Positions 1,044 to 16,602 of a DNA stretch of 64,000 bases are shown here, piece after piece; within the stretch, counting starts at the first letter, position 1; each line of letters opens with the position of its first letter. Made by a program: the position numbers and the translations under genes. The notes under the pieces are model-generated. The model was not told the DNA's origin and made no database searches. It was given only the letters and a program-made list of their open reading frames with translations. The stretch comes from Methanobacteriota archaeon. Its GTDB lineage: Archaea; Thermoplasmatota; E2; DHVEG-1. The stretch covers positions 672,001-736,000 of the forward strand of contig CAVYNH010000006.1 in assembly GCA_963769885.1 (NCBI GenBank). The letters run 5' to 3'.

Positions 1044-1121
1044 ACAGACACCTTTTCTTTATAGTAATTATAATCATTATGTCTATTTATAATTTACCCT
1101 TTAAAATCTTCATAATAGCTA

Positions 1122-1319
1122 ATAACTACAGGGTACCCTACACGGTCAAAGCTAGGTGAATTTATTTTAAAGATCTTCAAAGATAATGATGGAGCCTATC
1201 GGATCTATATTGGTATACCTATCGCCAAGGCTGCTCATTTTGAAAATAAAGAAAAGGTGAGATTTGATTATTACCCTGGGAAAAAAAGGTTAGTAATAAG
1301 GAAAATAACAGAATTATAA
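1122..1319 (+). CDS. Possible AbrB/MazE-like small DNA-binding protein (non-canonical ATA start or remnant)
   Basis: Open frame not in the ORF track: ITTGYPTRSKLGEFILKIFKDNDGAYRIYIGIPIAKAAHFENKEKVRFDYYPGKKRLVIRKITEL; residue pattern resembles a swapped-hairpin AbrB domain. Confidence 0.45.
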   Translation: MTTGYPTRSKLGEFILKIFKDNDGAYRIYIGIPIAKAAHFENKEKVRFDYYPGKKRLVIRKITEL

Positions 1320-1351
1320 GAAGAAAAGACTACTTTTATTCTACTCTCTAC

Positions 1352-1365
1352 AAAAACATTTATAA
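1352..1365 (+). promoter_or_regulatory. BRE/TATA promoter of the HTH-HEPN operon (probably leaderless)
   Basis: A-rich BRE-like run then TTTATAA about 24 bp upstream of ATG 1389. Confidence 0.55.
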
Positions 1366-1388
1366 TATATTTTGATATACTTTATTGC

Positions 1389-1691
1389 ATGAGCGATGAT
1401 GAATTTAAAGAAATCATCATTTCAAAATTAGATCGAATTGCTAATTTGTTGGAGATGAATGAAAAAAGAGAAATAGAAAATTTAAAAGTCCGATTGCTTG
1501 GACGGTCTAAAATTAAAAAAGAAATTTATGATCTTATAAACGGAGAAAGAACAGTACAAGAAATAGCCAATCTATTGAAAATTGCTCAACCAAATATAAG
1601 TAAAGCAATTGCTGACCTTGTGGATGGAAATCTTATCGGAAAAAAGACCAAAGGGAAATTTGTTATTTATTACAAAAAGTATGAAGGTTGA
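1389..1691 (+). CDS. Winged-HTH protein (ArsR/MarR-like), paralog A1
   Basis: RTVQEIANLLKIAQPNISKAIADLVDGNLI HTH plus wing; N-terminal helix SKLDRIANLL. Confidence 0.85.
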   Translation: MSDDEFKEIIISKLDRIANLLEMNEKREIENLKVRLLGRSKIKKEIYDLINGERTVQEIANLLKIAQPNISKAIADLVDGNLIGKKTKGKFVIYYKKYEG

Positions 1692-1695
1692 AAAA

Positions 1696-1989
1696 ATGAA
1701 TGATTTAGTTCTTTCAGAGGAAAAGGCAGATACGATAATTGCATTATTGAAATTAATAGCTGGCCAAAATATCAAGGAAATTAAAGAAAAACGAGAACAT
1801 TTACTTAGCGTCCCTAAAAAGAACTCTATTTTAGACGCGTGTGATGGAACAAAGGAATTGAATCAAATAGCCAAAAAAATAGGTGTATCTTATGAATATG
1901 TCCGGTTGACGGTTGCAGAATTAGAGAATGCAGGTTTAATAATTTTTATCAGGAGTGGAAAAAAGAATCTACCAAAGAAGGTGATATGA
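1696..1989 (+). CDS. Winged-HTH protein, paralog A2
   Basis: Probable start ATG 1696 (or 1681); KELNQIAKKIGVSYEYVRLTVAELENAGLI; N-terminal helix EKADTIIALL. Confidence 0.85.
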   Translation: MNDLVLSEEKADTIIALLKLIAGQNIKEIKEKREHLLSVPKKNSILDACDGTKELNQIAKKIGVSYEYVRLTVAELENAGLIIFIRSGKKNLPKKVI

Positions 1990-2204
1990 TTTCAGAAAAA
2001 GAAGATCCGATACTATTGGAATTAAGAAAAATAACAAACAGACTTGATGTTCTAATCGCATTCAACGCTATGCAAACAAATAGACCTGATTCAGACAAGA
2101 TAAAACTATTAAAAAAATTTGGACTTGGCTATGATGAGATACAAAATACATTATCCGTCTCACCCTCAACAATATCCAAAGTTCAAAAGGGGAAAGTGAA
2201 ATGA
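1986..2204 (+). CDS. Small HTH protein, paralog B1
   Basis: GLGYDEIQNTLSVSPSTISKV HTH; N-terminal NRLDVLIAF; ATGA overlaps on both sides. Confidence 0.8.
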   Translation: MISEKEDPILLELRKITNRLDVLIAFNAMQTNRPDSDKIKLLKKFGLGYDEIQNTLSVSPSTISKVQKGKVK

Positions 2205-2482
2205 ACGATAACAAGAATGAGCCAGCCGAGGAAAACGAAATATTAAGCAGACTAGATGTAATCATTTATCTATTATTAAAAGAGCAAAAACAATTGCCTA
2301 CTTCCAAGAAAAATATGGAAGAGCTTGTTAAAATGCTGAAGGGATTGGGAATTGAAGATTATAAATCTATTGCAAAAATTATCAATGCAAATCCTGGATC
2401 TGTGGCAAATATCCTTACCCGATTAAAAGGAAGTAAGAAAGTGAATAAAAATGTCCGAGAGAATAGATTCAAGAATCCTTGA
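2201..2482 (+). CDS. Small HTH protein, paralog B2
   Basis: DYKSIAKIINANPGSVANILTRLK HTH; N-terminal SRLDVIIYLL. Confidence 0.8.
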   Translation: MNDNKNEPAEENEILSRLDVIIYLLLKEQKQLPTSKKNMEELVKMLKGLGIEDYKSIAKIINANPGSVANILTRLKGSKKVNKNVRENRFKNP

Positions 2483-3200
2483 AAGAATAAAAGCTTGCCC
2501 TAAGATAAAAATATCTATTGCGGCCGTAAAAAATGAAATTTCTGAGATTAGAAGAGATAATCCGGGAGTTAGTTTAAATGCCGCAGCATGCGAATTTGCA
2601 AAAAGAAGAGGAGTCAATTTGATGAGGTATTTAGGAGATACAGATAGAACCACCTTATCATACATACGAGAAAGCCCCCAGCATACAATTGCGAAGGAAG
2701 AAAATAAAATAAGATCTATAAAAGTAAAACAGAATATTCCTACGGATGTTCCATACTTAACATCTGCCGATATATCAAATGCAGAAAAAATGTCTGTAAC
2801 TTATATTATTCTATATTGTTTTGAAAACTCCGTGAGAAGATTCATTATCGAACAATTGGAAAAAGCATATGGACCCAATTGGTGGGAAGATAAAATACAG
2901 GATAAAATAAAAAAAGAAGCTGATATTAATAGGAACCAAGAAAAAGACAAGAGATGGCATGCAACTCGAGGAGCTCATCCAATATATTATTTGACAATGA
3001 ACAGTTTAAGAAAAATAATTACTGATCAATGGCCTTTGCTGAAAAAAGTAATTAGAGAAGATCAAACATGGATCACAAGCAGATTGAATGAAATTACAGA
3101 TTCTAGAAACATAATAGCCCATCATAATCCCTTACCAAAAAGGGAAGTTGAAAGAATAATTCTCTATTTTGATGATTGGAAAAAACAAATGAAAATATAG
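2451..3200 (+). CDS. Swt1-like HEPN domain protein (predicted RNase)
   Basis: YIILYCFENSVRRFI...YGPNWW...SRNIIAHHN, with the Rx4H catalytic motif; extra helical N-terminal domain. Confidence 0.85.
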   Translation: MSERIDSRILERIKACPKIKISIAAVKNEISEIRRDNPGVSLNAAACEFAKRRGVNLMRYLGDTDRTTLSYIRESPQHTIAKEENKIRSIKVKQNIPTDVPYLTSADISNAEKMSVTYIILYCFENSVRRFIIEQLEKAYGPNWWEDKIQDKIKKEADINRNQEKDKRWHATRGAHPIYYLTMNSLRKIITDQWPLLKKVIREDQTWITSRLNEITDSRNIIAHHNPLPKREVERIILYFDDWKKQMKI

Positions 3201-3205
3201 AATTT

Positions 3206-4048
3206 TTAGATGTCTATAGTATCCGTCATTATTTCGTATTTACAATTCGTGCAACCAACCCGAATATGAACAGTATCAGGAGGCTCCTCATAGCCACCAC
3301 CTGAATAACGCTGTGTTTCCTTTATATGGCCACCACACGCTGGGCAAATTGAATCTTTTAATAAGGCATCTTCCCAAGCATTTATTTTTGAAATGACTTC
3401 TATAAATTTTGTTAATTTTTCTAAATCAGAATGATCTAAATCAGTTATTCTATGAATTTCTTTTATTCTCTTTTCAATAATTTTTTTTAAGGAGGGAATT
3501 TCAGAATAAATATCATCTTTCACTATTGGTGCATAGACATATTTTGCCACGTAGGGTGTTTCAAGTCCATAATTTGAGAGTATAATCTCCGATTGACTTA
3601 GGTAAAAATCAGTGATTCTCTTAAAATAATCAATGAAGTTAAAACCTTTAGAGCTCCTATAATATCTTACACCTGCCTTTAGAATCCACTCTTTGAATAA
3701 AGGAGCCTGCTGCCGGATATCCACTAGATCCTGTCCATCTGGAGAGAAGAAATCATCATGTTCTATTTTCTCTCGAATGCAATTAATCTTATTTATCAGT
3801 TGATTCCATTTTTCAATTTGATCAATGGTAGATAGTGGTCTATTAATTTGATTCCATCGTGTCTTTAAATGGGCTATTTTTAATGATTCAATATCATACC
3901 CCACGTGATTTGTGCCGACGACCAAAAGAAGCTTCATAAAATAATCCCATAGAAATTTGGCTGAAGCACGCCGCTCATCTGCACTTTCCTTTGGTGTTTT
4001 ATCATAAGATTCTAAGATGCTTCTTAAATATTCTTCTAGGTCAACCAT
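3206..4048 (-). CDS. HEPN-like protein with C-terminal Zn ribbon
   Basis: REKIEH (Rx4H) in a helical N-domain; CPAC...CTNC at the C-terminus; ATG start at 4048. Confidence 0.6.
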   Translation of the reverse strand: MVDLEEYLRSILESYDKTPKESADERRASAKFLWDYFMKLLLVVGTNHVGYDIESLKIAHLKTRWNQINRPLSTIDQIEKWNQLINKINCIREKIEHDDFFSPDGQDLVDIRQQAPLFKEWILKAGVRYYRSSKGFNFIDYFKRITDFYLSQSEIILSNYGLETPYVAKYVYAPIVKDDIYSEIPSLKKIIEKRIKEIHRITDLDHSDLEKLTKFIEVISKINAWEDALLKDSICPACGGHIKETQRYSGGGYEEPPDTVHIRVGCTNCKYEIMTDTIDI

Positions 4049-4067
4049 TAGTATTATCAATACTAAT
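4047..4067. promoter_or_regulatory. Perfect 9-bp inverted repeat overlapping the start of the HEPN/Zn gene (candidate operator)
   Basis: ATTAGTATT-ATC-AATACTAAT. Confidence 0.5.
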
Positions 4068-4276
4068 AGCCTATTTTAAGCTGAGTTTCATAGAGACCGT
4101 CAACCAGGCTAATTTTATTGGGTCAGCTTGATGTACGTCCAGATAAGAGTTGAGCAATTACGGCCTGAACCAAATCCATGTTATAAAATAAATTAGTATT
4201 ATTTTGCTTAAATACTTTATACTTTAAAGAAATTTTAGAATATACAAAGCCCCCTCAAGTTCAGGAAAATCGTTAC

Positions 4277-4410
4277 AGGAGAAGTTGAATACGGCGTTGT
4301 CTCAAACCTCAAAGGCTCCTCCTGAAGCCCTTTCATGACAAGGAAAATGGTCTAAGGAGAGGTCGAATACTTTTGAGACAAAGCCATTGAATACTTTCGA
4401 TGACCTCCTC
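4277..4410. repeat. Direct and inverted repeat cluster upstream of the recombinase
   Basis: AGGAGAAGTTGAATAC (4277) / AGGAGAGGTCGAATAC (4355) direct repeat; TTGTCTCAAA (4297) / TTTGAGACAA (4372) inverted repeat. Confidence 0.55.
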
Positions 4411-4523
4411 CAGGAGTATATAAGGAGAGAAATCATTCATTTACTCCAAGAAAAAATAGGTCAAAATGACCCCCAGATGGTTTGAGCATCCAGGGGTCTG
4501 AGACCATAATAGAGGTGTCTATT

Positions 4524-5504
4524 ATGATCCCGAACGGGAACAATACCAATAGTGGTAATAAGATTTTGGTGCAGGCCAGTCTCGAGCAGATAGTAATCGA
4601 AAAGCCATTGATCACACTACAACCTAAACCGGTCATGCCTTCTATCGTGCCGACTCCTTCTCCGAAGAATGAAACTGACAACGACAAACTCTTGGACAAG
4701 TTCAACCGCTATATGCGTGAGAACAACTACAGCAAGAGCACCATCTACATGTATACGAAGGTCGTCGGCCAGATGCTTGCCATGAAAGATTCGTTCTCCA
4801 TGACGGAGGATGATCTCAGCGACGTTCGGCTCTATCTTGTTGAACGCTATGCCCAGAATGGGAACCGGGCGAGGTTCGCTGCTATCAATGCTTTCTGCAA
4901 GCATATCCTCAAACGAAAAGACCTACATCTCAAGATCCCCAGTCCCGTCATCAAGAACAAAGACGTGTTCACCAACGAGCAGATTGACGCTATCCTTGCC
5001 ATTGCGAAAACGAAGAATAAACTCGCTTATGCCGTCCTTCAGACTTTGTACCATTGCGGACTACGTAAGATGGAGTTGTGCAATCTGAATCTTGCTGACC
5101 TTAATTTCGACACCATGGAATTGAAACTGAACAACACCAAGACAGGCAACGCGATTGTCTCCATGACCACCGCCGTTGCCAAGTCTCTGCAGGACTATAT
5201 TCAAAATGAACGACCTAAGAAAGAAGATGAACAAGCGGTATTCCTCAGTAAGAAAGGTGTGCGAATCGGTGAATGGACTGTCCGAGGATACCTCAAGGAA
5301 TGTGGGAAAGAAGCCGGGATTAAATCCCGGATGTATCCACACATGCTACGAGCATCATGCATTACACATCTTTTAAACAAAGGAGTGAATCCACTAACCG
5401 TTCAGCTCCATGCAAGGCATAGGAACTTCATGACAACCATGAGATATAATCGGCCAACTCAGCAGCAGATGAAAACGGATATCGAACGAATTTTCTCGAA
5501 GTAA
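4524..5504 (+). CDS. Tyrosine recombinase/integrase (Xer-like)
   Basis: Catalytic residues GLRKMEL, TKTG, HMLR, ARHR, TMRY; SAM-like N-domain; GAGGTG RBS before ATG 4524; no IntI-type insertion visible. Confidence 0.92.
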   Translation: MIPNGNNTNSGNKILVQASLEQIVIEKPLITLQPKPVMPSIVPTPSPKNETDNDKLLDKFNRYMRENNYSKSTIYMYTKVVGQMLAMKDSFSMTEDDLSDVRLYLVERYAQNGNRARFAAINAFCKHILKRKDLHLKIPSPVIKNKDVFTNEQIDAILAIAKTKNKLAYAVLQTLYHCGLRKMELCNLNLADLNFDTMELKLNNTKTGNAIVSMTTAVAKSLQDYIQNERPKKEDEQAVFLSKKGVRIGEWTVRGYLKECGKEAGIKSRMYPHMLRASCITHLLNKGVNPLTVQLHARHRNFMTTMRYNRPTQQQMKTDIERIFSK

Positions 5505-5568
5505 TGTGATGATTTTCAAGTTGGGAGTATATTTTTAAATAACGATCAGTTGTATATTTTGGATACTT

Positions 5569-6459
5569 ATGCCAATATTTGACGATGTCGGCAAAGCGCT
5601 TAAAAGAACTAGCGATGTAATTAAAAAAACAACCGATGGGATAGCGAAAAATATTGCTGCAAGTCAAGAAAATGCAAGGAGAAAACGGGAGATTTTAAAT
5701 AGATTCGTTATGGATGATTTGAAAAAAATATGCAAGGAATATGGAATTGGCGAGCCAGATCCATACGAAGAATTTTTTGGAGAAAGAACAAAGAAGAAAA
5801 TAACACGAAACGATTACATAGATTATATTGAAGAGAGGCTAGATTTGAAACACATCGAAGACTTTTGTAATAACCATAGAATAAAGAGGCAAATTGAAGT
5901 TGAATCTGGAGTCGAGGCACAAAAAGACCATCCTTCTCGACCAGAGCCTCCAATAGTAAATGAATTACGGAATGAAGAAAACAAAATCCAAGAAAAGACT
6001 TCAATAGTGACGACAGCAAATCAGAAACCACAGGGAGAAACTCACGATATCCTTAATACAATAAAGGAACAGTTCAAACCAGAGCCCTGCATGAACGAAA
6101 AAGAACTACAGGGTCAGCTAATGATCTGGTTCAATATTATGTATCCCAATCGGGTCGTGCGAGAGGTCTCCACGATGGCTGGAAAAGTCGATTTTGCGAT
6201 TGATAAAAATAGACTTGGACTCGAGGTAAAAATAGCTTTTGACAAGGGGACCTTGAGAAACCTAGTAGGTCAAATTCTCGCTTATAAAAAATATTTCAAT
6301 GAAGTAGGTATAATTTTGATGGATGTCAATGATATGCCAAATTCGATAATTACTGAATACATTAATGAATATAGAAATCAAGGCGTCGAAACCATAGTAA
6401 TTCAAGGGCAAATTAGGAAAAAGAAAGGAAGACCCAGAGAAGTCCGTGTAAAATATTAA
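5569..6459 (+). CDS. PD-(D/E)XK restriction-endonuclease-fold protein
   Basis: C-terminal EV...VDF...LEVK...GQILAY pattern; helical N-terminal domain and low-complexity linker. Confidence 0.7.
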   Translation: MPIFDDVGKALKRTSDVIKKTTDGIAKNIAASQENARRKREILNRFVMDDLKKICKEYGIGEPDPYEEFFGERTKKKITRNDYIDYIEERLDLKHIEDFCNNHRIKRQIEVESGVEAQKDHPSRPEPPIVNELRNEENKIQEKTSIVTTANQKPQGETHDILNTIKEQFKPEPCMNEKELQGQLMIWFNIMYPNRVVREVSTMAGKVDFAIDKNRLGLEVKIAFDKGTLRNLVGQILAYKKYFNEVGIILMDVNDMPNSIITEYINEYRNQGVETIVIQGQIRKKKGRPREVRVKY

Positions 6460-6511
6460 ATATCATTCAGGTTTCTTCTATTAATCATAATCTCAATTGA
6501 GATATTTATCT

Positions 6512-6532
6512 TAGCAATACTACTACTTGGTA
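6512..6532 (+). repeat. Island motif copy
   Basis: TAGCAATACTACTACTTGGTA. Confidence 0.55.
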
Positions 6533-6612
6533 ACTTATTAAAATGATTGATTTACTTATTAGAATGGTTTATTAAAAGATAAAAGATGTATTTGAGCTGG
6601 AGTTGTAAGACT

Positions 6613-7497
6613 ATGAAGAAAGCGGCATTTTTCTTACCTGTCTTTGTTATTTTATCTATCATCTTGTTAACTGGATGTACTGAAACAACTGGGCCTCTCT
6701 TAATGTCGATTACCAAATTCACAGCTGAACCTAATATTATAGCACAAGGCCAAACAGCTAACCTTAGTTGGCAAACATTCGGTGCTGTACAAGTAACGAT
6801 TGACCATGGCATCGGGAATGTGAGCATTTATGGATCAAGAATCATTGCTCCAACTAATACTACAACATACACTTTAACAGCATCAAATATTACTCATACA
6901 TTAACAGCCACAGTTCAAATAATCGTTCATTCAAATGAACAGACCGGAATATTAGTAAATTCATTCACAGTTAATCCGCGTATCGTACATCAAGGTCAGA
7001 CTGCAAACCTCACATGGAACATCACTGGAGCTAGTGTCGTCCAAATTGATCATGGTATCGGCAACATTAGCCTCTCTGGTACAAGAATTATTATGCCTTT
7101 AGAAACAACTACGTATACTATTACCTGCTCAAATGCAGTGAACACAGTAACGGCTACAACTCAAATTCTCGTCGAAGAAACAGAATCACCTCCTCCTGCC
7201 ACTACGCCATCAATTGCGTGCACTTTAGATAGTAGCAACAATAAAATTACTATAGCTAGCGCTGACCCCAACATTCAATGGAGCAATCTAAGGATTACAA
7301 ATAGTAGTACTCCCGCCTGTCATTGGGCAATATATGCAAATGGCGGGGTAACTAACCAATCTACAAATGTCCTTCCCTCCGGGGAGGTTATCGCTGGAGA
7401 TTATTTGAAAATCTGGGGCGTAACTGGAAATGTGCAGTTTACATGGGCTTACGTGCCAACGAATTCGTTAATTGGAGTTTGGACGATAAACGTATAA
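6613..7497 (+). CDS. Surface lipoprotein with two Ig-like repeats and a possible pilin-like C-terminal domain
   Basis: Lipobox LLTGC; duplicated FT.P.I.QGQTANL.W...V.IDHGIGN.S..G.RII.P..TTTYT repeat; C-terminal TPSIAC...SADPNIQWS...AGDYL...TNSLIGVWT. Confidence 0.75.
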   Translation: MKKAAFFLPVFVILSIILLTGCTETTGPLLMSITKFTAEPNIIAQGQTANLSWQTFGAVQVTIDHGIGNVSIYGSRIIAPTNTTTYTLTASNITHTLTATVQIIVHSNEQTGILVNSFTVNPRIVHQGQTANLTWNITGASVVQIDHGIGNISLSGTRIIMPLETTTYTITCSNAVNTVTATTQILVEETESPPPATTPSIACTLDSSNNKITIASADPNIQWSNLRITNSSTPACHWAIYANGGVTNQSTNVLPSGEVIAGDYLKIWGVTGNVQFTWAYVPTNSLIGVWTINV

Positions 7498-7510
7498 CCT
7501 AAAAATCTCC

Positions 7511-7597
7511 TAGCAATTCCAATATAAAAACCGTTTGGATAGCAATCATTATAAGAATATAACTCTTTTAGCAATTAATTATACATTAAAAAAGTAA
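7511..7597 (+). repeat. Island motif copy followed by two more TAGCAAT cores at exact 29-bp spacing
   Basis: TAGCAAT at 7511, 7540, 7569; the first is CTAGCAATTCCAATA, identical to 9029. Confidence 0.6.
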
Positions 7598-7623
7598 AGA
7601 AAATTAAATTAAATGGAAACCGT

Positions 7624-8988
7624 ATGAAAAAAAGAATAATTCTCATTTCAATTATTTCTATTTCACTTTTCTTGAATATTTTATTTTCCGGTTGTCTACA
7701 AAACAATACTATAACTACCGAAAATAATGGACAAAATTCAAAAAATGCTAATCAAGATAGACAAGAACAACCAGAGCCACAACAAACATACAAAGATTCA
7801 GACAGAGATGGTTATTACGATTACCAGGATAGTTTTCCAAATGACCCATCTGAATGGAAAGACAGCGATCATGATGGTGTCGGAGATAATTCAGATAAGT
7901 ATCCCTACGATTATGATAATGATGGATATGCAGACTCAGTTGATATCAAGAAAAACGGTGATGCTGCCATCAAAATATCCTTAAAAAAATTCAATGTCGA
8001 GGACGAATTGGATTTTCTTTTTGTGAGTGTTGAAGTTTATTTTGAGATATACATTAACGGAAGAATGGAAGCAAGAATCGACGATAATGGCGAATCATGG
8101 CATGCAACTGTTGGAGAAACATATTCAATAGGAGAAAGCGTCATCTATAACATAGATGATGACCAGAGGTACACGAATGTTAGAATCATCATGTGGGATG
8201 ACGATTACCTACTAGAAAATGATCCAATTGATATTGATGGAACCGGTACTGATGCAAAAGCATTAGACATCGTTTTTGACGCAATTACAGGTACTTGGAC
8301 AGGGGATGATAATGACGGCTTTACAGATGGTAGTGATGATGGAAGTGCAAATTATGATGACGACGATGGTAGTTTGTGGTATAGTCTTCAATTAGTTGAG
8401 GCTCAATATAACAAAATCTATCATTGGACATTTGATTGGAATCAATGGGAGTTACGCATTAATATTCCACCTACCAGCTATGCCTATTACAGACATTCAA
8501 ACGTCGATAGATCTCCTATTTTACCATCACAGATGGCTGCCTTTGTCACTTCTGATGATTCCATTATTAAAGACATCGCCCAACGATTACAGTCACATTG
8601 CAACGAAGCTGGGTATAGTTCATCTAAAACGGTTAATTTCATATTGAGTTTTGTTCAAAGTTTAGAATACACTTATGATAATGCTTCTACACCAGCAAAT
8701 GATTATTGGCGTTTTCCCGTGGAGACATTAATGGATGAAACTGGAGATTGCGAAGATACCTCCGTTCTCTTCGCTGCTATTATGGAAGCAGTTGGATTTG
8801 ATGCTGTTTTAATACATCTACCAGGCCATCTAGCAGTTGGAATATCATGTAATGAGGGATCTGGTTCGTATTATGATTACAATGGAAAATCGTATTATTA
8901 TTGCGAAACAACTGGCACAGGGTGGAATATGGGAAATATTCCATCTAATTTTGAGGAGCAATCAGCAAATATTATAGATGTTGATTAA
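7624..8988 (+). CDS. Lipoprotein with Ca-binding (TSP3-like) repeats and transglutaminase-like Cys-protease domain
   Basis: Lipobox FSGC; DSDRDGYYD...DSDHDGVGDNSD; GDCEDTSVL...GHLAVGI...YCETT. Confidence 0.8.
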   Translation: MKKRIILISIISISLFLNILFSGCLQNNTITTENNGQNSKNANQDRQEQPEPQQTYKDSDRDGYYDYQDSFPNDPSEWKDSDHDGVGDNSDKYPYDYDNDGYADSVDIKKNGDAAIKISLKKFNVEDELDFLFVSVEVYFEIYINGRMEARIDDNGESWHATVGETYSIGESVIYNIDDDQRYTNVRIIMWDDDYLLENDPIDIDGTGTDAKALDIVFDAITGTWTGDDNDGFTDGSDDGSANYDDDDGSLWYSLQLVEAQYNKIYHWTFDWNQWELRINIPPTSYAYYRHSNVDRSPILPSQMAAFVTSDDSIIKDIAQRLQSHCNEAGYSSSKTVNFILSFVQSLEYTYDNASTPANDYWRFPVETLMDETGDCEDTSVLFAAIMEAVGFDAVLIHLPGHLAVGISCNEGSGSYYDYNGKSYYYCETTGTGWNMGNIPSNFEEQSANIIDVD

Positions 8989-9029
8989 ATAATTTGAAGA
9001 AACTAATCCTTGGAGGAGTAATTGTCCTC

Positions 9030-9050
9030 TAGCAATTCCAATACCTGTTA
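9030..9050 (+). repeat. Island motif copy between convergent genes
   Basis: TAGCAATTCCAATACCTGTTA. Confidence 0.65.
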
Positions 9051-9085
9051 TTTTACCTTGAAAGCTCAGTATAGGAAAAGAAAAA

Positions 9086-10000
9086 CTACCACGTCCACGT
9101 GTAATCGTACGGTTGTGGTGCAGGGCGCCAGTCAATCCCGGACTTCAAGGGGAAGATGATGGTTGGAAGGCGATGCAGAAACGGGATATCGCTCCTCCAT
9201 CCGATCCAGTAGTAATTCTTGTGCCAGTAGGACGGCGCACCGCCGCGCGCGGGCACCAAGAAGTTATTCTCGATAATCTTGCTACCCGCACCGGCCCCGG
9301 AGAGGCTGATAGCAGTGGCACCGCACAAATCGCACGGCCAGGAGAAGTTGTTGTGTGCTACCAGCGTGTTCTGAGCACCGGCGGTGATCAGTAAATCGTA
9401 CCCGAAGTGGTTGTCGAAGTGATTCTGCCGAATGGTGTTGTCACAGCCCCCTGAAAGAAGAATTCCCGCTTCATACAACTCAATGAGTTCGAAATAGTTA
9501 TGAAAGATTGACGAATTAGCAACGTTGTTGAAAGTAATGGTACTCATGGTGGTGTAAAGGTCGCAATTCGAAATATTGACATCCGAAACGCCGTCAGCGA
9601 TGATGGCATAGGAGGTGATGATCTCGCCACCTTCGTACGTGATGCGAAAGCCATCTACTTTGACGGAATCGCGGATGATGTGAATGGCGGGCCGTTGCCA
9701 ATCGCATGCTTGCAGGGATACATCGTGGTGGTCTGCAATGAGCGAAATGGATTTGTTGACAACAACATTTTCCCAGTAGAAGGGTTCGTGACGGTACACG
9801 TACACGGTGTCGCCATCAAGGGAGGCGTTGATCGCATCTTGAATGGCTGTGTAGTTCCCAGGGCCGCTCCCACCAACGTACAGTGTGGCCCCAGTGTACG
9901 TCGTGGGTGATGGTAGGGATGCTTCGTTCGCAAAGGCGAAGACAGGAGGCATCAAGGCGAGAACGCCGATCATTCCAAAGACTACTATTTTATTTCTCAT
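9086..10000 (-). CDS. Secreted parallel beta-helix (NosD-like) protein
   Basis: Signal peptide from ATG 10000 (MRNKIVVFG); YVGGSGPGNY; C-terminal IDWRPAPQPY. Confidence 0.85.
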   Translation of the reverse strand: MRNKIVVFGMIGVLALMPPVFAFANEASLPSPTTYTGATLYVGGSGPGNYTAIQDAINASLDGDTVYVYRHEPFYWENVVVNKSISLIADHHDVSLQACDWQRPAIHIIRDSVKVDGFRITYEGGEIITSYAIIADGVSDVNISNCDLYTTMSTITFNNVANSSIFHNYFELIELYEAGILLSGGCDNTIRQNHFDNHFGYDLLITAGAQNTLVAHNNFSWPCDLCGATAISLSGAGAGSKIIENNFLVPARGGAPSYWHKNYYWIGWRSDIPFLHRLPTIIFPLKSGIDWRPAPQPYDYTWTW

Positions 10001-10025
10001 GAATTTTCCTCCGTTATCGATCAAG

Positions 10026-11312
10026 TCAAATCGTGTACGGTTGTCGAGCAGGATGCCAGTCGACATTGACCCATGGAATATTGAAAGGAATGGATTGGAA
10101 GGGATTGAAATAGTAGTTGTAGGTGAAGCTTGTTCCAAGAATGACCTTTGGGAAGGCTCGAGGCATGGTCCAATAGTTATGCCACCACAAGGTCCGCGTG
10201 TACGCGAAGCGGGCGTTCCTGATATTGTGCATGAAGTTGTTTTCCTCGACGATGTTTGGTTTCAAGGCAAAGTAGTGCAGATTGTCCCCAGCAATTGAGA
10301 TGCCGAGGGCATTGTGTTCAATCGAGTTTCGTTCAATGGTATTTCGCTGGCAGGTGGCAAGCTTGATTCCGATGGAACAATTCGTAATGGAATTGTGGAT
10401 GACGGTGTTTGCATCTGACGAGAGGAGACTAATACCAACCGAGACGGTGGAGATATTGAGGTCGCGCACGGTCATATAATGACAGGAAATAAGGAAGAGT
10501 TGTCCAACATCATTGCTAGCATCGATGGTCTTGTTTGCTTCTCCATTTAACATCAGAAAAGACTTGCCGTTGACGTTATTTTTGCTAAAGGAATTATTGT
10601 ACGCATCCGTATCTTCGAGGTTGAACCCACACTGGATGCAGGTGTTTCCTTCAAAGGTGTTCATCCGGGAGTAGACAATGTTGATCCCTATCAACCCACC
10701 ATGGGAGATGATGGTGTTGTTGGCGATGACATCATCCTGATCGTAAATGACGTTGATGGCTGTACTTGCCTTTTCTTCCAGGATGAAGGTGTTTCCGATC
10801 ACCGTGCTATTCCGTTGACCACGGAAGTCGAGATTATTATCCCACTTGTTAAAGTCATCGTAGTACACGTACATCGTGTTATTGTCGAAATGGTTAAACG
10901 AGCCAGCATAGATTCCCATGGAATTCTTAACAATATTATTGTCAAGGGTGATACTGCTCCTCATGTTCGAATAGAAGAACCCATCAATCGTAAATCCCGT
11001 AATTCGAATCTTGTCCTCGAATACTCCAAAAGAACTAACTTCGGTCGTGGTTCTGTTCTCCCCGACGATGGTCAGTTGTTTGGTGATATCAGCCTCCCCG
11101 TACGGTGAACTATCGTCATAGACAAAGATGAAGTCCCCATCATATGCGTCACGAACTGCCGCATTGATCGTGGTATAGTTACCAGGTCCGCTGCCACCAA
11201 CGTACAAGATATTTTCTCTTCCGCCTTTTCTTTGTCCTAAGTCGCGCGCAGTAACGGAAACGCAAAAGCCAATAACAATGAAGATTGCACCAAGAATGAA
11301 CAGCTTGTTCAT
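10026..11312 (-). CDS. Secreted parallel beta-helix (NosD-like) protein
   Basis: Signal peptide; YVGGSGPGNY; Asn-ladder repeats; C-terminal VDWHPARQPY. Confidence 0.85.
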   Translation of the reverse strand: MNKLFILGAIFIVIGFCVSVTARDLGQRKGGRENILYVGGSGPGNYTTINAAVRDAYDGDFIFVYDDSSPYGEADITKQLTIVGENRTTTEVSSFGVFEDKIRITGFTIDGFFYSNMRSSITLDNNIVKNSMGIYAGSFNHFDNNTMYVYYDDFNKWDNNLDFRGQRNSTVIGNTFILEEKASTAINVIYDQDDVIANNTIISHGGLIGINIVYSRMNTFEGNTCIQCGFNLEDTDAYNNSFSKNNVNGKSFLMLNGEANKTIDASNDVGQLFLISCHYMTVRDLNISTVSVGISLLSSDANTVIHNSITNCSIGIKLATCQRNTIERNSIEHNALGISIAGDNLHYFALKPNIVEENNFMHNIRNARFAYTRTLWWHNYWTMPRAFPKVILGTSFTYNYYFNPFQSIPFNIPWVNVDWHPARQPYTI

Positions 11313-11372
11313 GAATTGCCTCCATATATAGTAAAAGTTATCAGTTATTTAAATATTCACATGAAAATCACA

Positions 11373-11490
11373 TAGCCTTGTTCTTACAGGGTATGAGATA
11401 TTCTTCAAGAAAAAGTGCTTTCTTTCCCCTAGCAATTCCACTGTAAGGTACTATAGTGTGAAAATCATCTAGCGATACTGCTATAAGATA
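11373..11490 (+). repeat. Three island motif copies between divergent genes
   Basis: TAGCCTTGTTCTTACAGGGTA (11373), TAGCAATTCCACTGTAAGGTA (11430), TAGCGATACTGCTATAAGATA (11470); first and third both preceded by TGAAAATCA. Confidence 0.65.
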
Positions 11491-11540
11491 AATCACACTT
11501 TTCTAATAAATTATAAATAGCTTCTATCCAATTTCTTTTC

Positions 11541-11927
11541 ATGGGTAGGATAGTCAAAGATATAATTGTCGATGGTAAAATTAGACAAGCGATCTTTGAT
11601 AGTGGTTCAGTCGTCAGTTACGTGACGGAAAAAGCTTTACCTGAATCAGCCGTTTGTATTAATGTATCCCCCATAACATCTCGAGTAGCGGGTTCCACTC
11701 ATCAACTAACAAAGCGCTGCTTCATCCCAAGCAAACTCGATGGAAAGGATTTCGATTTTGATGCATTTGTCATCGATAAACTCGGTAAAGTCCAAGAAAA
11801 AGGAGACGTAGATCTGGATTTTTTAATAGGCGCAGCAACGATGGAAGAATGGTCCATCAGTATAAATCCAAAGGAGCAAACTGTTGACCTTCGCGGATTG
11901 AAAAGACGAGAATTTCTCTCTTTCTAA
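11541..11927 (+). CDS. Retropepsin-like (clan AA) aspartic protease
   Basis: AIFDSGS catalytic motif and FLIG motif; single-domain, 128 aa. Confidence 0.8.
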   Translation: MGRIVKDIIVDGKIRQAIFDSGSVVSYVTEKALPESAVCINVSPITSRVAGSTHQLTKRCFIPSKLDGKDFDFDAFVIDKLGKVQEKGDVDLDFLIGAATMEEWSISINPKEQTVDLRGLKRREFLSF

Positions 11928-12021
11928 ATTTCAAATCTATTATCTTCCAAGAAAAGAAATCCTTCCGATGGAAATGGAAGAAAAAGACATAAAATTACAA
12001 TGAAATACTATTAAATTTCCA

Positions 12022-12042
12022 GATTAATTCCACTATGAGGTA
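12022..12042 (+). repeat. Terminal island motif copy adjacent to the DUF2207 stop codon
   Basis: GATTAATTCCACTATGAGGTA, 2 bp from the stop codon at 12045. Confidence 0.6.
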
Positions 12043-12044
12043 AG

Positions 12045-13805
12045 TTATCTTCCTCCTGCGCCGCCGCCGCCAAACCCTCCGCCGCCACCGAAGCCGCCCC
12101 CATGTCCTCCTGCACCGGATGCCGCAGAAGTCATGACGGCGCGATTGACGCCATAAAACGACGCGTAAAACACCGGGACGAACGTTACCTCAGGGACGTT
12201 GATATTGAGTTTCTTCATAACCTTTGCAAGTTCCTTGCCGACACCAAGAGTCGTCCCATAAACGAGCCATTCCTTCCACACCGACAGGTCCTCAAGCCGA
12301 TATTGCTCCAGGTGCACCATATCCGCAAGAAACCGCCGGAAGGAATCCCACTCCTGCCTCTCCTTATAGTAGTCGTCTTTCCATCGCCCAAAGAGCGTCG
12401 GGGACGCCGCAGTCGCAATCACGGCTTGGACCGATAATATGAGCGAGTACGCCATGGCCGCGAACAACAGGGGATACACGCCTCCAAAGATACCGAACAA
12501 GATCAACGTGAGGATAAAGGACAAAACACCTATGCCAATGAAGACGGCGGGCAGTCTCCGTCCGCTCGTCATGAATTCTTTAGACAGCCTCGTGTCGGCT
12601 TTTCTGGTCAAGTACCGCATCTCGCGCTGGAGTGTCATAATCTGGGGCTGATTGTGCATGCCGGTGATCTCCGCTTCGAGCGCCGCTGTGGAAAACACGT
12701 TGTTTTTAGCCCATTTCGAAAGAAAAGACACGGCCCTTTGTTCATACTCGTCCAAGCCCTCGGCATGGTTGTTGATATGAATTTTAATGGTGCTTTCGTC
12801 CTCCGTTTCGATGGTGATGATCTTTCGCTGATGGAGGTCAAGCAACGTCGCGTAGAACCCGTTTGGGTTATAATCCTCGGCGCTTTTCACGAAGACTAAG
12901 TTCACAATCCATGGTTTTCGTTTCGCTGGGACGACGTTCAAGAATGTGGGGACGACAGAGCTTTTCTCCCGGCCTTTGAGAACATAGAGGACGAGGAGAA
13001 TGACGACAAAACCAACGACGAGGACGAGGAGCAGGTCAGTAAAAACAGACACTGCTCCATTTGCGAGCGTGTAGGCATCGTTGGCCGATACCGTCTTTTG
13101 GTACACCCCTGGCACGGTCCGGTGATAACCATAGGATATGTTATGTGAAAGGATCTCGACTTCGAGGAGACTGTTGGCAGGGCTCGCCCCGGTGATGGTG
13201 TACGTCGAGCCTGACTTCACGAGGTTCATCTGAGGGCGGGTGTAGATCGTGACGATGTCTCCAGAGGGGTCGTCTACCGTGATCTCAACGGATTTGTAGG
13301 CAATGTGGGTCGCGGCGAGCTTCAGGTTCAGGTGGTCGTACTGACCGTCGGACTCTACCGGTGGGGCGATGGTGTAGTTGATGCGAAGCGTGTAGATGCC
13401 TTCGTTGAAATGATCGGGGTTGTAGCATCCGATCTCGGAGTCGAAGGCCTTCGAAGCTATATCGGGGGCGGAGCTGAGCCAGACCCGCCCCGTGTAATCC
13501 TTGATATATGGTGAGTATGGGCAGGTCACGTTTGTGACCTCGATGTAGGGCTGAGAGGATGTCTGTTGATACGTGACGTTGTCCTCCCAATATCGGTAGA
13601 GCATCGTGTATCTGCCGCTCGCCTTGACGTTGTACTGGAAGGTCTCCTGCAGCCTGCCGTCGGGAGAGAGCGTCGCCTTGTAGCTGTTGACGACGAGGTC
13701 GCCTTCAAGTGGGAGGGCGTTGACGATGAGGATGCCGATGCCGGCGACGAGGACGACGACAGCCAGGACGATCGTCAGCTGACGCGGTTCGTTCACTGGT
13801 TCCAC
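12045..13805 (-). CDS. DUF2207 family membrane protein
   Basis: TM segments, W..F..FL, WLVYG..LGV, Gly-rich C-terminus GGGFGGGGAGGR; coupled to lemA. Confidence 0.88.
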   Translation of the reverse strand: MEPVNEPRQLTIVLAVVVLVAGIGILIVNALPLEGDLVVNSYKATLSPDGRLQETFQYNVKASGRYTMLYRYWEDNVTYQQTSSQPYIEVTNVTCPYSPYIKDYTGRVWLSSAPDIASKAFDSEIGCYNPDHFNEGIYTLRINYTIAPPVESDGQYDHLNLKLAATHIAYKSVEITVDDPSGDIVTIYTRPQMNLVKSGSTYTITGASPANSLLEVEILSHNISYGYHRTVPGVYQKTVSANDAYTLANGAVSVFTDLLLVLVVGFVVILLVLYVLKGREKSSVVPTFLNVVPAKRKPWIVNLVFVKSAEDYNPNGFYATLLDLHQRKIITIETEDESTIKIHINNHAEGLDEYEQRAVSFLSKWAKNNVFSTAALEAEITGMHNQPQIMTLQREMRYLTRKADTRLSKEFMTSGRRLPAVFIGIGVLSFILTLILFGIFGGVYPLLFAAMAYSLILSVQAVIATAASPTLFGRWKDDYYKERQEWDSFRRFLADMVHLEQYRLEDLSVWKEWLVYGTTLGVGKELAKVMKKLNINVPEVTFVPVFYASFYGVNRAVMTSAASGAGGHGGGFGGGGGFGGGGAGGR

Positions 13806-14350
13806 CTCGTCTCTGGCTTGTGCTGTGATTCGTCCTCGAACTGCAGGTACTCAAGTTTTTTGAAGGAGAACAGTCGTGCGACGATGCTGGAGGGGAACGT
13901 CTCGGACCTGGTGTTGTAGTCCTGCACGATGTTGTTGTAGGTGTAGCGGAGCCTGGCGATCTCGTCTTCGACGTCCGTGATCGCGTGCATCAGTTGTGTG
14001 ACGTTCTCGGAGGCTTTCAGGTTCGGGTAGGCTTCGACGACGGCAGAGATCCGGTCGAGGAGCCCGCGCGAGCCTTGGTTAATCCGGGTGACGGTCTGCG
14101 TCGTCTCCGGCTGTTGGATGATGCTGCGGATCTCGGCGACTTTCTCGAAGACCCCGCGTTCGAATTTGGCATAGCTCTTGACGATATCGACCAATTGAGT
14201 GATCATGTCGAATCGTTTCTTCAACGCGACCGCGATCTGACTGAGCCCAGCGTCCGCGCCGTTTTTCAGGATCTGGAATTTGTTGTAGGCGAGAATGAAG
14301 AGAACGATGACCAGGACGAGGACAAGTGTACCGAGCAAGATGAGAAGCAT
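13793..14350 (-). CDS. lemA: LemA family protein
   Basis: N-terminal TM; SQI.VALKKRFD; EAYPNLKASEN; RY.YN..V..YN...FPS. Confidence 0.92.
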   Translation of the reverse strand: MLLILLGTLVLVLVIVLFILAYNKFQILKNGADAGLSQIAVALKKRFDMITQLVDIVKSYAKFERGVFEKVAEIRSIIQQPETTQTVTRINQGSRGLLDRISAVVEAYPNLKASENVTQLMHAITDVEDEIARLRYTYNNIVQDYNTRSETFPSSIVARLFSFKKLEYLQFEDESQHKPETRWNQ

Positions 14351-14441
14351 GAGGGGAGTAGTGGAAAAAAATATTTAAAGATACCTTCCCGTAGGAAGCG
14401 TAAACAAATAACTTTTCAGGGAATAGAGTTCCCCTGAGGCA

Positions 14442-15512
14442 TCACACCGTGGAGTACGCGTAGGGCTGCTGGGCGGGATGCCGGTCGACCTCAACACGCG
14501 GGAGATGCGGCAGATCGATTTTATGCCCATGCCAGAAGACGCTCCAGCCCCTGACGAGATACGGATGGTCCAACGACGCGTTCCAGTAGTTCGCATCCCA
14601 CGTCGTCGAGCCGAACGGCCGATAATACCTCAGGACATAGGACTCGTTGAAATACCGGGCCTCCCTCAGGTAGTTTAGCTCCCAGTACGGCAGTTTCGCG
14701 AACATCGCGTCCCGCGCGTTCCCCAGGAAATTGTTCCGCTCCACCCGATCGTCGCAGGAACAGTTGATCTCCAGGCCCAGGCTGTTTCCCTCAAACGTGT
14801 TCGTCGCGATCGTGTTGTTTACCCCGTAGGAGTCATGGATCCCTTCCCTGCTGTTGTTCCGGAAGGTGTTCAAGAGGACCCTATTGTGACAGCAGCCGTA
14901 GAGCACCATGCCGAAATCGTTGTCCTCGATGATGTTGCCCTCAAACGTCGAGTCGTTGCAGCGGTACTCGGTCATAATGCCGATGTAGGTGCGGCTGATG
15001 CGGTTGTCGAGAAGGCGGATGCGCTCCCGCTGGGTGACCGGAAGCCAGAAGACCTTGAGGTTGATGCCCATGTTCGCGTCGCTGACCGCCGTCTGGCTGA
15101 TGGTCACGTCGTCCGCGCAGACGATGATATTCTGGATCCCGTTCTTAACCGTAAAGTTGCGGATTTGGACGCCGTCGGCCAGGACCCAGATCAGGACCGC
15201 GATGGAGTGGTTCCCGTCAAGGACGGTCGTGTTCGTCGCCTCGCCGACCAGGCTGATGGACGTGTTGATGACCAGCGTCTCGTGATACGGGGTGGAGTCG
15301 TCATAGACGAACACCGTATCGCCATTGGCCGATGCGTTGATCGCGTCCTGAATCCTGGTATAGTTATCCGGTCCGCTGCCGCCGACATACCGGATTGTTC
15401 CCGTTTGGACCGGCGTGGGTGTCCAACGGCCTGGGATGGGTGCTGAGGCAGCCGTAAGCAGGCTGGAAAGAAGCAGTACGCATACAGAAAATATCACGGT
15501 TATCGTCTTCAT
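14442..15512 (-). CDS. Secreted parallel beta-helix (NosD-like) protein
   Basis: Signal peptide; YVGGSGPDNY; C-terminal VDRHPAQQPY. Confidence 0.85.
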   Translation of the reverse strand: MKTITVIFSVCVLLLSSLLTAASAPIPGRWTPTPVQTGTIRYVGGSGPDNYTRIQDAINASANGDTVFVYDDSTPYHETLVINTSISLVGEATNTTVLDGNHSIAVLIWVLADGVQIRNFTVKNGIQNIIVCADDVTISQTAVSDANMGINLKVFWLPVTQRERIRLLDNRISRTYIGIMTEYRCNDSTFEGNIIEDNDFGMVLYGCCHNRVLLNTFRNNSREGIHDSYGVNNTIATNTFEGNSLGLEINCSCDDRVERNNFLGNARDAMFAKLPYWELNYLREARYFNESYVLRYYRPFGSTTWDANYWNASLDHPYLVRGWSVFWHGHKIDLPHLPRVEVDRHPAQQPYAYSTV

Positions 15513-15642
15513 CGTTTCCTCCAAGGACAATAGAAGAGCCCTGGGTTATAAATAATTTGTTGCTCCGCCACCCCCGAATGAAAAGAATTTAATAATAGCC
15601 TGCTCTATTGGAGGGCTAGATTATCGTTTTTTGGAGGAAAAC

Positions 15643-15852
15643 ATGGCGAATATAGACAATCCATCCGCTGGAGGGAGAATAAAACGGAAAGGAAAAAAAG
15701 AAAAAAATAAGGAAAAATGCGAACGAGGACCGACAGAAGAAAATAAACGAACAAAAAAAGACGAGATCCTGGATGAGGAAGAAGACGAAGAAAACGAAGA
15801 AGAAGATGAATACGTAGACCATTATCAAAAGAGAAATGTCAAAGATGAATGA
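15643..15852 (+). CDS. Small charged low-complexity protein
   Basis: GGAGG RBS before ATG 15643; basic then acidic tracts. Confidence 0.45.
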   Translation: MANIDNPSAGGRIKRKGKKEKNKEKCERGPTEENKRTKKDEILDEEEDEENEEEDEYVDHYQKRNVKDE

Positions 15853-15881
15853 GTATAGCTATCTCATAGGAGGAAAAGAAT

Positions 15882-15986
15882 ATGCCGAGATGCCCGCAAT
15901 GCGAGAAATTTTTTAGAAGTAAAAAGGCGCTAGAAAAACATAATACAAAAGAACATACAAAGAAACTAAAGAGAAGAGTTTATTGA
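15882..15986 (+). CDS. C2H2 zinc-finger microprotein (34 aa)
   Basis: Not in the ORF track: MPRCPQCEKFFRSKKALEKHNTKEHTKKLKRRVY; AGGAGG RBS at 15868. Confidence 0.75.
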   Translation: MPRCPQCEKFFRSKKALEKHNTKEHTKKLKRRVY

Positions 15987-16285
15987 TAGAGCGGATTTTT
16001 TTTCAAGGATACGAGTCTGATTACTTCCAATTTTTTCCAGAGATTGTGAAACCATGTCTGTACCAGAGGATCGCAGGATAAATTCGTATTCCACGCCTCT
16101 TGAATTTCATTCGTGGTCGCTCCCAGGTTGAACGAATCTGAAAGACAAACCCTGCTCCATCTCTTCATATCCGCATCCACTTTATCAAAGCATTTTCCGC
16201 AGACCAAGAAGCGTACTCCAAGCGCAGGATGGCGATGCCCTTCTAGAATCCCTAATTTCTTCTCGCATTCTTCACAGTCGACCAT
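15980..16285 (-). CDS. Small CxxC-CxxC zinc-binding protein, copy 1
   Basis: CEEC...HPALG.RFLVCGKC; close paralog at 18622-18951. Confidence 0.75.
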   Translation of the reverse strand: MVDCEECEKKLGILEGHRHPALGVRFLVCGKCFDKVDADMKRWSRVCLSDSFNLGATTNEIQEAWNTNLSCDPLVQTWFHNLWKKLEVIRLVSLKKNPLYQ

Positions 16286-16520
16286 CGTAGTTGTTCTCCG
16301 TTCAAGAAAAGAGATGTGGACGATATAATCGTCCTTGATGTTTTTCTTTATCTCACTTTCTTCGTTTTCCCCAAAAACAATCGTTAAGTCATAGGCTCTG
16401 GAAATAAGGACCTGATTGCCGGTTGTTTTCTGTATTCGTTGTTCTTCGTTGTCTCACCGTCCTTTCCGATGTTTTCGGATGATAGTAGTATACACTAGAC
16501 CCTTTATATCATTGTGTAAG

Positions 16521-16561
16521 AAAGCATATAAATGTGTAAAATTAATGCATTTTTGTGTAAA
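16521..16561 (+). promoter_or_regulatory. Duplicated promoter/operator element, copy 1
   Basis: AAAGCATATAAATGTGTAAAATTAATGCATTTTTGTGTAAA; 34/41 identical to 18015-18055. Confidence 0.65.
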
Positions 16562-16602
16562 GAAATCGGGGGCGGTCAAACCCGGATTTTCAACAACCCC
16601 GT

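Follow-up and report, generated by a model that had tools for sequence, protein, structure and literature searches.

Can archaea build arrays of single genes in the way that integrons do, but with a recombinase and a recombination site of another kind? The question is raised by a low-GC (guanine plus cytosine) island in the stretch analysed here, hereafter the window: 64,000 nucleotides from a Methanobacteriota archaeon (assembly GCA_963769885.1, contig CAVYNH010000006.1, positions 672,001 to 736,000; G000:C6:672001-736000 in our numbering), in which a gene for a Xer-like tyrosine recombinase (4524-5504) stands before a row of accessory genes parted by copies of a short sequence. Integrons are devices for stockpiling and reshuffling single genes, and are defined by one clade of integrases together with folded attC sites. 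The archaeal integrons so far described are canonical IntI/attC systems (Ghaly et al. 2022, PMC9668308). In the island studied here, a recombinase-linked, one-directional and clade-specific site stands at every module border. We propose, with a probability of about 0.62, that the locus is an integron-like, site-specific cassette array outside the integron family. A preliminary description of this DNA had suggested an integron-like array, and the confinement of the site and the breaks in homology that coincide with it support that suggestion.

Results

A one-directional site at every module border

The host genome (G000; 2.09 Mb, 55% GC, seven contigs, 92% complete) was compared with that of a sister genome (G001) and with further loci, designated below by L-numbers. 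GC content is 30-45% across window positions 1000-12040 and 0.52-0.56 from the DUF2207 gene on. Within the low-GC part, positions 6511-12036 probably constitute an array of four cassettes, 0.6-2.4 kb long, that hold one or two genes apiece and have a site at their right end. The parts of window 4385-12036 and the two genes that follow are these:

4385-4523, plus strand: recombinase leader, defined by alignment of five islands; TATA-like box TATATAAGG and hairpin GACCCC.GGATG...CATCC.GGGGTC
4524-5504, plus strand: tyrosine recombinase, Xer-like, 326 amino acids (Pfam Phage_integrase); alternative TTG start at 4482
5569-6459, plus strand: variable gene, 296 amino acids; weak DpnII/MboI restriction endonuclease likeness (Pfam E = 0.002, below cut-off)
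6511-6526, plus strand: first-type site TTAGCAATACTACTAC, in an attI-like position
6527-7525, plus strand: putative cassette 1; lipoprotein gene 6586-7497 and terminal site 7510-7525 (CTAGCAATTCCAATAT)
7526-9044, plus strand: putative cassette 2; transglutaminase-like gene 7624-8988 (Transglut_core, E = 8e-5) and terminal site 9029-9044
9045-11444, minus strand: putative cassette 3; beta-helix/NosD-like genes 9086-10138 and 10026-11312 (Pfam NosD, Beta_helix)
11445-12036, plus strand: putative cassette 4; retropepsin-like gene 11541-11927 and degenerate terminal site 12021-12036 (AGATTAATTCCACTAT)
12045-13805, minus strand: GC-rich DUF2207 gene (Pfam DUF2207 and DUF2207_C); right bound, outside the array
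13793-14350, minus strand: LemA gene (Pfam)

The core of the site reads YTAGCAAT(T/A)C(C/T)A(C/A)TA and follows a pyrimidine-rich left flank. Its information content sits mostly in TAGCAATTCCACTA and to a lesser degree in a TTCTCC-like left flank, the informative part amounting to about 14-16 nucleotides plus the flank. The preliminary description had reported a motif recurring on the plus strand at every gap between 6460 and 12044, and this was borne out. The 21-mer consensus, with up to three mismatches allowed, gives four matches in the window (6512, 9030, 11430 and 12022), all on the plus strand, against 0.01 expected from shuffled sequences; all five intergenic gaps in the interval hold a plus-strand copy, whether the neighbouring genes are tandem, convergent or divergent; and CTAGCAATTCCA is exact at 7510, 9029 and 11429. 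The terminal site of cassette 3 (11429-11444) thus lies on the plus strand while the genes of that cassette lie on the minus strand. The last copy, found at 12022 with a degenerate left half, occupies 12021-12036 and ends at the step in GC, 8 nucleotides short of the DUF2207 stop codon (12045), which agrees with the earlier placement of this copy at the composition boundary.

Several details of the preliminary description needed correction. Among the copies it listed, the one at 11373 is weak (about 12 of 19 consensus positions, as read by eye) and may be just conserved promoter DNA of the beta-helix cassette, and the two at about 530 and 1116 are members of a different family of sites, described below. 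The 'nnGGTA' tail of its consensus is not conserved across islands.

Two clusters of the core's left half were also noted. Between cassette 1 and the transglutaminase gene there are three TAGCAAT repeats (7511, 7540 and 7569), exactly 29 nucleotides apart, and a similar doublet with a spacing of 40 nucleotides is found at 11430 and 11470, its second member being a secondary site of cassette 4 (11469-11484, CTAGCGATACTGCTAT). These repeats could be accessory binding sites.

Within the host genome, the site is a property of islands that carry this recombinase. The 12-mer CTAGCAATTCCA has four copies in all 2.09 Mb, the fourth at C4:129189, in a second island with a paralogous recombinase. When the genome was scanned with a 16-nucleotide position weight matrix (PWM) built from 13 copies, sites of at least 18.7 bits were confined to two places, this island and C4:126441-129189. 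One isolated copy occurs at G000:C6:274876; a single 11-mer match is about what our own arithmetic gives as the chance estimate for a genome of this size. A PWM match upstream of the recombinase in the window, at 4054 (13.5 bits), is without counterpart in the other islands. The preliminary description had named a motif scattered genome-wide, as a transcription-factor site would be, as an outcome that would speak against its reading; a genome-wide regulatory site was considered and rejected, the top PWM matches sitting only in the two recombinase islands and the motif being confined to islands with this recombinase clade.

Related islands share the layout and the site

Recombinase relatives at 81-88% identity are present in the sister genome (L009/L016, G001:C36), in the second island of the host (L010, G000:C4) and in the metagenome contigs L027/L028, L029/L030, L055 and L092. 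Six islands have a common layout, in which the recombinase is followed by 1-4 unrelated genes, then by the first site TAGCAATACTACTA, and then by modules of 0.6-2.8 kb. The six with TAGCAATACTACTA as first site downstream of the recombinase are those of the window, L010, L016, L027, L029/L030 and L092 (TAACAATACTACTA in L092), and the distance from the stop codon of the recombinase gene to this site is 1.0-3.5 kb. Inter-island homology stops at that stop codon: the slot between recombinase and first site, occupied in the window by the 296-residue gene, holds unrelated, mostly defence-type genes in the other islands, including those for a restriction endonuclease-like protein, an HD protein, a methylase and a Saf_2TM-like protein. 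In L010, a TIR gene stands just upstream of the recombinase. On the other side, identity begins about 140 nucleotides before the recombinase ATG in five islands, and the DNA further upstream is unrelated. The leader so delimited, whose hairpin has a 12-bp stem, may be an autoregulatory or recombinase-binding region.

Modules end in TAGCAATTCCA(A/C)TA with a pyrimidine-rich flank before it (cassette ends can also be given as TAGCAATTCCAMTA), and 18 of 18 aligned sites are on the recombinase strand. The genes in the modules are diverse and accessory, among them bPH/SHOCT, beta-helix, arylsulfotransferase, ferredoxin-like and MarR/TrmB regulator genes. No recombinase, replication, packaging or other mobility function was found in the modules of the six arrays. 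In the window, the cassette 1 protein has a signal peptide and an LLTGC lipobox, and the end of this cassette (AACCTAAAA.TC.TC.CTAGCAATTCCAATA) resembles that of a cassette found in other islands (cassette A, below); cassette 3 is homologous to a one-gene cassette of the sister genome; and the translation of 11541-11927 in cassette 4 contains a DSGS motif and has no Pfam match.

The same set of sites is present in L016, L027/L028, L029/L030 and L092, and the PWM did not find it in 62 metagenome and 15 genome loci whose recombinase relatives are at most 62% identical. A degenerate 14-mer searched in 108 genomes of the taxonomic family gave mostly one or two matches each; the 18 places checked were coding-like and without a nearby recombinase, and we read these scattered matches as chance. 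The 15-mer of the first site had only single matches per contig in viral contigs, which we read in the same way.

Conservation of the sites resides in sequence and not in pairing. Folding of five sites as single-stranded DNA, on both strands, gave z-scores of -1.5 to +1.0 and no attC-like fold. The preliminary description had drawn attention to a near-palindrome at the 11430 copy and to the 28-30-bp sites with 6-8-bp spacers of tyrosine recombinases. The near-palindrome does exist (11436-11455) and is partly kept in the sister genome, but it is not seen across the aligned sites, and a 28-30-bp dyad with a 6-bp spacer is not supported as a general anatomy, complementarity of the outer arms being 2.7 of 8 positions versus 2.1 in random island DNA. 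Good palindromes do occur at a few sites, for example ATCTAG-CAATTCCA-CTAGAT at L010 15190.

Homology between islands begins and ends inside the sites

The preliminary description had proposed a comparison of gene order among relatives. Breakpoints were located by all-against-all BLASTN of the islands and alignment of the junctions; gene order is not shared, and blocks of homology begin and end inside sites. One case is cassette A, which comprises a small Zn-ribbon gene and a 155-amino-acid bPH/SHOCT gene. Between L016 (14454-15317) and L027 (12959-13815), this cassette is 88.6% identical, while the recombinase genes of the two loci are just 77.7% identical; the match begins exactly at the first site and stops 11 nucleotides past the next site, and the flanks on both sides are unrelated. 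The tail of L030 is likewise 99% identical to cassette A of L027, and the recombinase genes of this pair are 75.7% identical. L029 and L030, seemingly two assemblies of one sample to judge from the coincidence of the contig pairs L027/L028 and L029/L030, are identical through the last base of the first site and then diverge. Cassette A is the first cassette in three islands, a position in keeping with entry through the first site and with recent transfer from one platform to another. Homologues of the cassette A gene occur without a site in L236 and L238, so the gene exists outside arrays too; a further homologue, in L240, is followed by a divergent site-like sequence.

A second set of breakpoints bears on where strands might be exchanged. 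The beta-helix cassette of the window (10048-11442) matches L016 15377-16839 at 77-78% identity, and the match stops inside the site. The DNA to the right of this window site (GTAAGGTA.TATAGT.TGAA, 11435-11462) reappears in the sister genome at L016 20425-20452, and the start of cassette 4 (ATTCCACTGTAAGGTA.TATAGT.TGAA) recurs at L016 20419, 3.6 kb further along the sister array. The extra 3.6 kb comprises two modules and is bracketed by direct copies of ATTCCACT, which would put the crossover at the core's right edge. By a rough estimate, block ends within about 12 nucleotides of sites that are spaced about 1.3 kb apart would be rare by chance.

The recombinase is an accessory protein with relatives at tRNA-Cys

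The recombinase matches Pfam Phage_integrase (PF00589, E = 4e-34) and has all of the catalytic residues R181, K206, H273, R276, H299 and Y308, which are invariant or nearly so in 24 relatives; with the complete R-K-H-R-H-Y set, it looks active. The best NCBIfam model is XerA (NF040815), whose 220-bit cut-off it fails with 135.5 bits. It also fails the integron-integrase model TIGR02249, which covers the additional domain specific to IntI (69.4 bits in two separate stretches, against a cut-off of 265), and scores 31.6 bits against 435 for PRK15417. In a search of the PDB, the nearest solved structures were the archaeal XerA proteins 5HXY and 4A8E (Thermoplasma, Pyrococcus), and the match to IntI4 (2A3V) was limited to the N-terminal half.

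A second copy of the gene, 83% identical in nucleotides, is that of the C4 island (L010), which is also low in GC. A third-copy fragment at G000:C4:108884-109165, 66% identical over residues 232-325 and with an in-frame stop, probably represents a platform in decay. Of the 108 family genomes, 10 contain relatives at 45% identity or more. The recombinase is most probably not the host resolvase, given two paralogues and a fragment in one genome and so sparse a distribution. No protein of the 92%-complete host genome reaches the XerA cut-off, and the two island recombinases score best.

More distant relatives (45-62% identity) have a different neighbour. Of the 34 whose downstream sequence extends for at least 190 nucleotides, 31 have tRNA-Cys(GCA) after the recombinase gene, and the other three have a partial 5' copy only. 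The tRNA-Cys lies about 196 nucleotides from the recombinase, or 1-2 kb away with one gene between. In L056, L017 and L068, partial 5' copies of tRNA-Cys bracket extra modules that contain cargo only: a PKD surface protein, or an aminotransferase, AFOR, homoserine dehydrogenase and a large surface protein. Partial 5' copies of this kind, with the cargo modules that they mark (L013-L019, L056-L091), form an additive island at that end of the tRNA gene. In a quick tree, the clade with the first site forms one group (Shimodaira-Hasegawa-like approximate likelihood ratio test, SH-aLRT, 87) among tRNA-Cys-associated groups, with the basal order unsettled, and we infer that this recombinase clade derives from, or is sister to, tRNA-Cys-adjoining integrases that attach at the 5' end of the tRNA.

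Within the first-site clade, the arrangement of recombinase followed by tRNA-Cys was not found. The window contains no tRNA, and the host's own tRNA-Cys, at C3:35629, is without an adjoining recombinase. The relatives carry a tRNA-Cys attachment (att) site downstream; the first-type site stands at the equivalent position, and in this clade a non-tRNA site may have taken over the position of the tRNA-Cys attachment site. The skeleton TA.CAA-N5-CTA, which the site and tRNA-Cys share by eye, is not significant by PWM and serves as a lead only.

Some further observations concern the tRNA-Cys loci. In about 30 of them (L013-L019, L056-L091), the spacer of about 196 nucleotides before the tRNA often contains repeated CATAAC/GGTAAC motifs. 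In L081, a CRISPR-like (clustered regularly interspaced short palindromic repeats) array of about 100 repeats with a period of about 66-67 nucleotides (11220-17720) starts about 0.4 kb downstream of the recombinase relative, just past its tRNA-Cys. Upstream of recombinase relatives in L021/L094 (3256, 3999) and L088 (1300, 2067, 2138), there are repeated 3' ends of another tRNA (TTCAAATCCCTTCCCCTGCA), so that these loci hold a further series of tandem att scars.

A second site family lies to the left

The copies near 530 and 1116 belong to a family of the form GTAYCC-N5-GGTCA(AAGCTA), found at window 532-569 and 1114-1160, at G000:C6:662112 and 668705, and at L010:8743, L027:650 and L029:394. 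These sites are always on the plus strand and upstream of the recombinase, occur only in loci of this recombinase clade and, in the host genome, delimit a separate array to the left. At window 1114 and L027 631, the left-type site is preceded by ATAGCTAA.AACTA, which resembles the site of the right array. A non-coding stretch of 125 nucleotides is 83% identical between L016 (7868-7992) and L027 (522-645), and this match stops at ATAGCTAA; the sister genome is without the GTACCC...GGTCA core there.

Other features of the island

Between the left array and the recombinase, at 1389-4060, lie small helix-turn-helix (HTH) genes, a Swt1-like HEPN gene (2451-3200) and a convergent 284-amino-acid gene, a content that looks like defence genes. 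The DUF2207 gene at the right bound is itself patchy, being present in seven of the 108 family genomes. An Rfam scan of window 1-16000 matched no known RNA family.

Discussion

Proposed mechanism

We propose that each cassette carries at its right end a double-stranded recombination site, composed of a TTCTCC-like flank, TAGCAAT and TCCAMTA, and that the array starts at the distinct first site TAGCAATACTACTA, downstream of the recombinase and one variable defence-type gene. The recombinase encoded at 4524-5504 would bind the TAGCAAT-containing sites, and strand exchange would take place in ATTCCACT or immediately after it, at the core's right edge. When two direct sites recombine, the cassette between them would leave as a circle; the preferred partner of such a circle would be the first site, so that each newcomer shifts the older cassettes rightward. 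Arrays in different genomes could thereby acquire, shed and swap individual accessory genes, which encode surface proteins, enzymes and regulators. We infer the action of the recombinase on these sites, the circles, the entry at the first site and the crossover at or next to ATTCCACT from the arrangement of the islands.

A number of points weigh against this proposal. The case is built from comparative sequence data on about six islands that all belong to one narrow clade and in part to the same sample, and the difference between L029 and L030 may be an assembly artefact. The cores of first-type and cassette-type sites differ at two positions (CAATACTA versus CAATTCCA), and differing cores hinder complete exchange by classical tyrosine recombinases. 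Dyad symmetry beyond CTAG...CTAG is not above that of random island DNA, which leaves a full two-arm core site hypothetical. Between 1 and 4 genes separate the recombinase from the first site, and the stop codon of the recombinase gene has no recognisable site. A search of relatives for an empty target site downstream of DUF2207 found none, and no site-like sequence follows that gene there. Derivation of the site from a tRNA was tried and rejected: no tRNA of the host genome scores above 8.5 bits by PWM, and the 5' region of tRNA-Cys scores -3.5. The left-hand site family co-occurs with the same clade, which makes the cognate site of the recombinase ambiguous. Finally, a stationary capture platform and serial accretion at an att site are only partly separated by the data.

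Alternative explanations

Serial accretion is the alternative that survives best, although we consider it unlikely. On this account, small integrative or cis-mobilisable elements inserted one after another at a single att site and left the repeats behind as attL/attR scars, the recombinase belongs to one of these elements, and the array is a passive pile. Accretion of cis-mobilisable elements (CIMEs) in Streptococcus is a known example of tandem integration, and partial tRNA repeats around extra modules, as seen in the distant relatives at tRNA-Cys, are the classic signature of that process. Array genes lie in both orientations and so probably have their own promoters. Additive islands in which tRNA-fragment repeats surround gene cassettes have been described (PMC7771536). 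Against a passive pile, genes for recombination, replication or packaging are absent from all modules of the six arrays, and modules of 0.6-2.8 kb are small; a distinct variant of the site is conserved at the recombinase-proximal end of six islands; and the most recently shared cassette is always the first, which fits a fixed entry site. Mechanistically, accretion overlaps strongly with the cassette-array reading.

Quite improbable is a regulatory role, in which the repeat would be the site of an island DNA-binding protein or a transcript-end signal, and the breakpoints would result from homologous recombination at the sole conserved stretches. Several HTH proteins are encoded in the islands, and the triple TAGCAAT at 29-nucleotide spacing upstream of the gene at 7624 is a possible operator. 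But strand and position of the motif are independent of the genes, as it is found after plus-strand stop codons, after the stop codon of a minus-strand gene and upstream of a minus-strand start; it is absent from the rest of the genome, and its presence tracks one recombinase clade and none of the HTH genes; 16 nucleotides are very short for homologous exchange; and direct repeats of the core flank the extra 3.6 kb of the sister array.

That the recombinase is the host's chromosome-dimer resolvase, with modules resembling IMEX (integrative mobile elements exploiting Xer) or pdif elements stacked at dif, is very improbable: XerA provides the best family and best structures and no other protein of the 92%-complete genome passes the XerA cut-off, but the recombinase itself scores 135.5 against 220 bits, has a paralogue at 83% nucleotide identity in a different island, has relatives at 45% identity or more in just 10 of 108 family genomes, belongs to a family whose other members are tied to tRNA-Cys, and is accompanied by multiple direct copies of a site without an 11-6-11 dif-like dyad.

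Comparison with known systems

The functionally closest known system is the integron, yet the locus fails both defining tests, an IntI-type integrase and folded attC sites. As in integrons, a tyrosine recombinase stands beside one-directional cassettes of 0.6-2.8 kb that lack mobility genes and each end in a site, a distinct site marks the recombinase-proximal end, the common cassette that moved recently comes first, and crossover appears to occur at the edge of a conserved core. There are also differences, and the preliminary description was right to call the array non-canonical. The recombinase scores 69 bits against the 265 required by the integron-integrase model. The sites are 16-25 bp of conserved sequence without hairpin potential, whereas attC sites are imperfect palindromes (R''-L''/L'-R') that fold as single strands and keep their structure. 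The recombinase gene points in the direction of its array and is separated by 1-4 defence-type genes from the first site, cassette genes occur in both orientations with no common promoter evident, and on the opposite side there is another array, with sites of a different type.

Xer/dif systems with IMEX elements and the pdif modules of Acinetobacter plasmids share with this locus a Xer-type recombinase fold and short sites flanking single-gene modules. Here, however, the recombinase is accessory and duplicated, and the sites are direct repeats without an 11-6-11 dyad; the modules of pdif systems, by contrast, are bounded by inverted sites.

The array also fits a broader known class, that of additive islands built by tandem site-specific insertion, for which the additive flexible genomic islands of Ca. 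Actinomarinales (PMC7771536) and the tycheposon islands of Prochlorococcus (bioRxiv 10.1101/2020.12.28.424599) are precedents. In those islands, cargo modules lie head to tail, are parted by direct repeats of an att site and are swapped between strains; here, too, modules are parted by direct repeats and differ in content between close relatives, and the wider family of the recombinase behaves in this way at tRNA-Cys. Unlike in additive islands, the repeat does not derive from part of a tRNA gene (the window contains none, and the PWM matches no tRNA), the recombinase is present in cis in every island, there is a dedicated first-site variant, and the modules are mostly single genes.

Implications

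A bolder reading, which we offer tentatively and hold to be less probable than the array itself, is that these islands are an independently evolved archaeal counterpart of the integron, with a stationary Xer-like integrase from tRNA-Cys-targeting ancestors, a dedicated entry site and short double-stranded cassette sites. Possibly, one recombinase clade serves two orthogonal arrays, left and right, whose sites share TAGC-type arms and differ in their cores, as a two-sided library of defence and surface genes.

Arrays of this kind would escape integron finders, and a compact recombinase with its site could make a possible tool. More broadly, Thermoplasmatota may have reached an integron-like outcome with an ordinary Xer-like integrase and a sequence site of 16-25 bp. 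If true, this would show how capture platforms evolve from integrative elements, and it would explain the one-at-a-time exchange of defence and cell-surface genes in uncultured sediment archaea.

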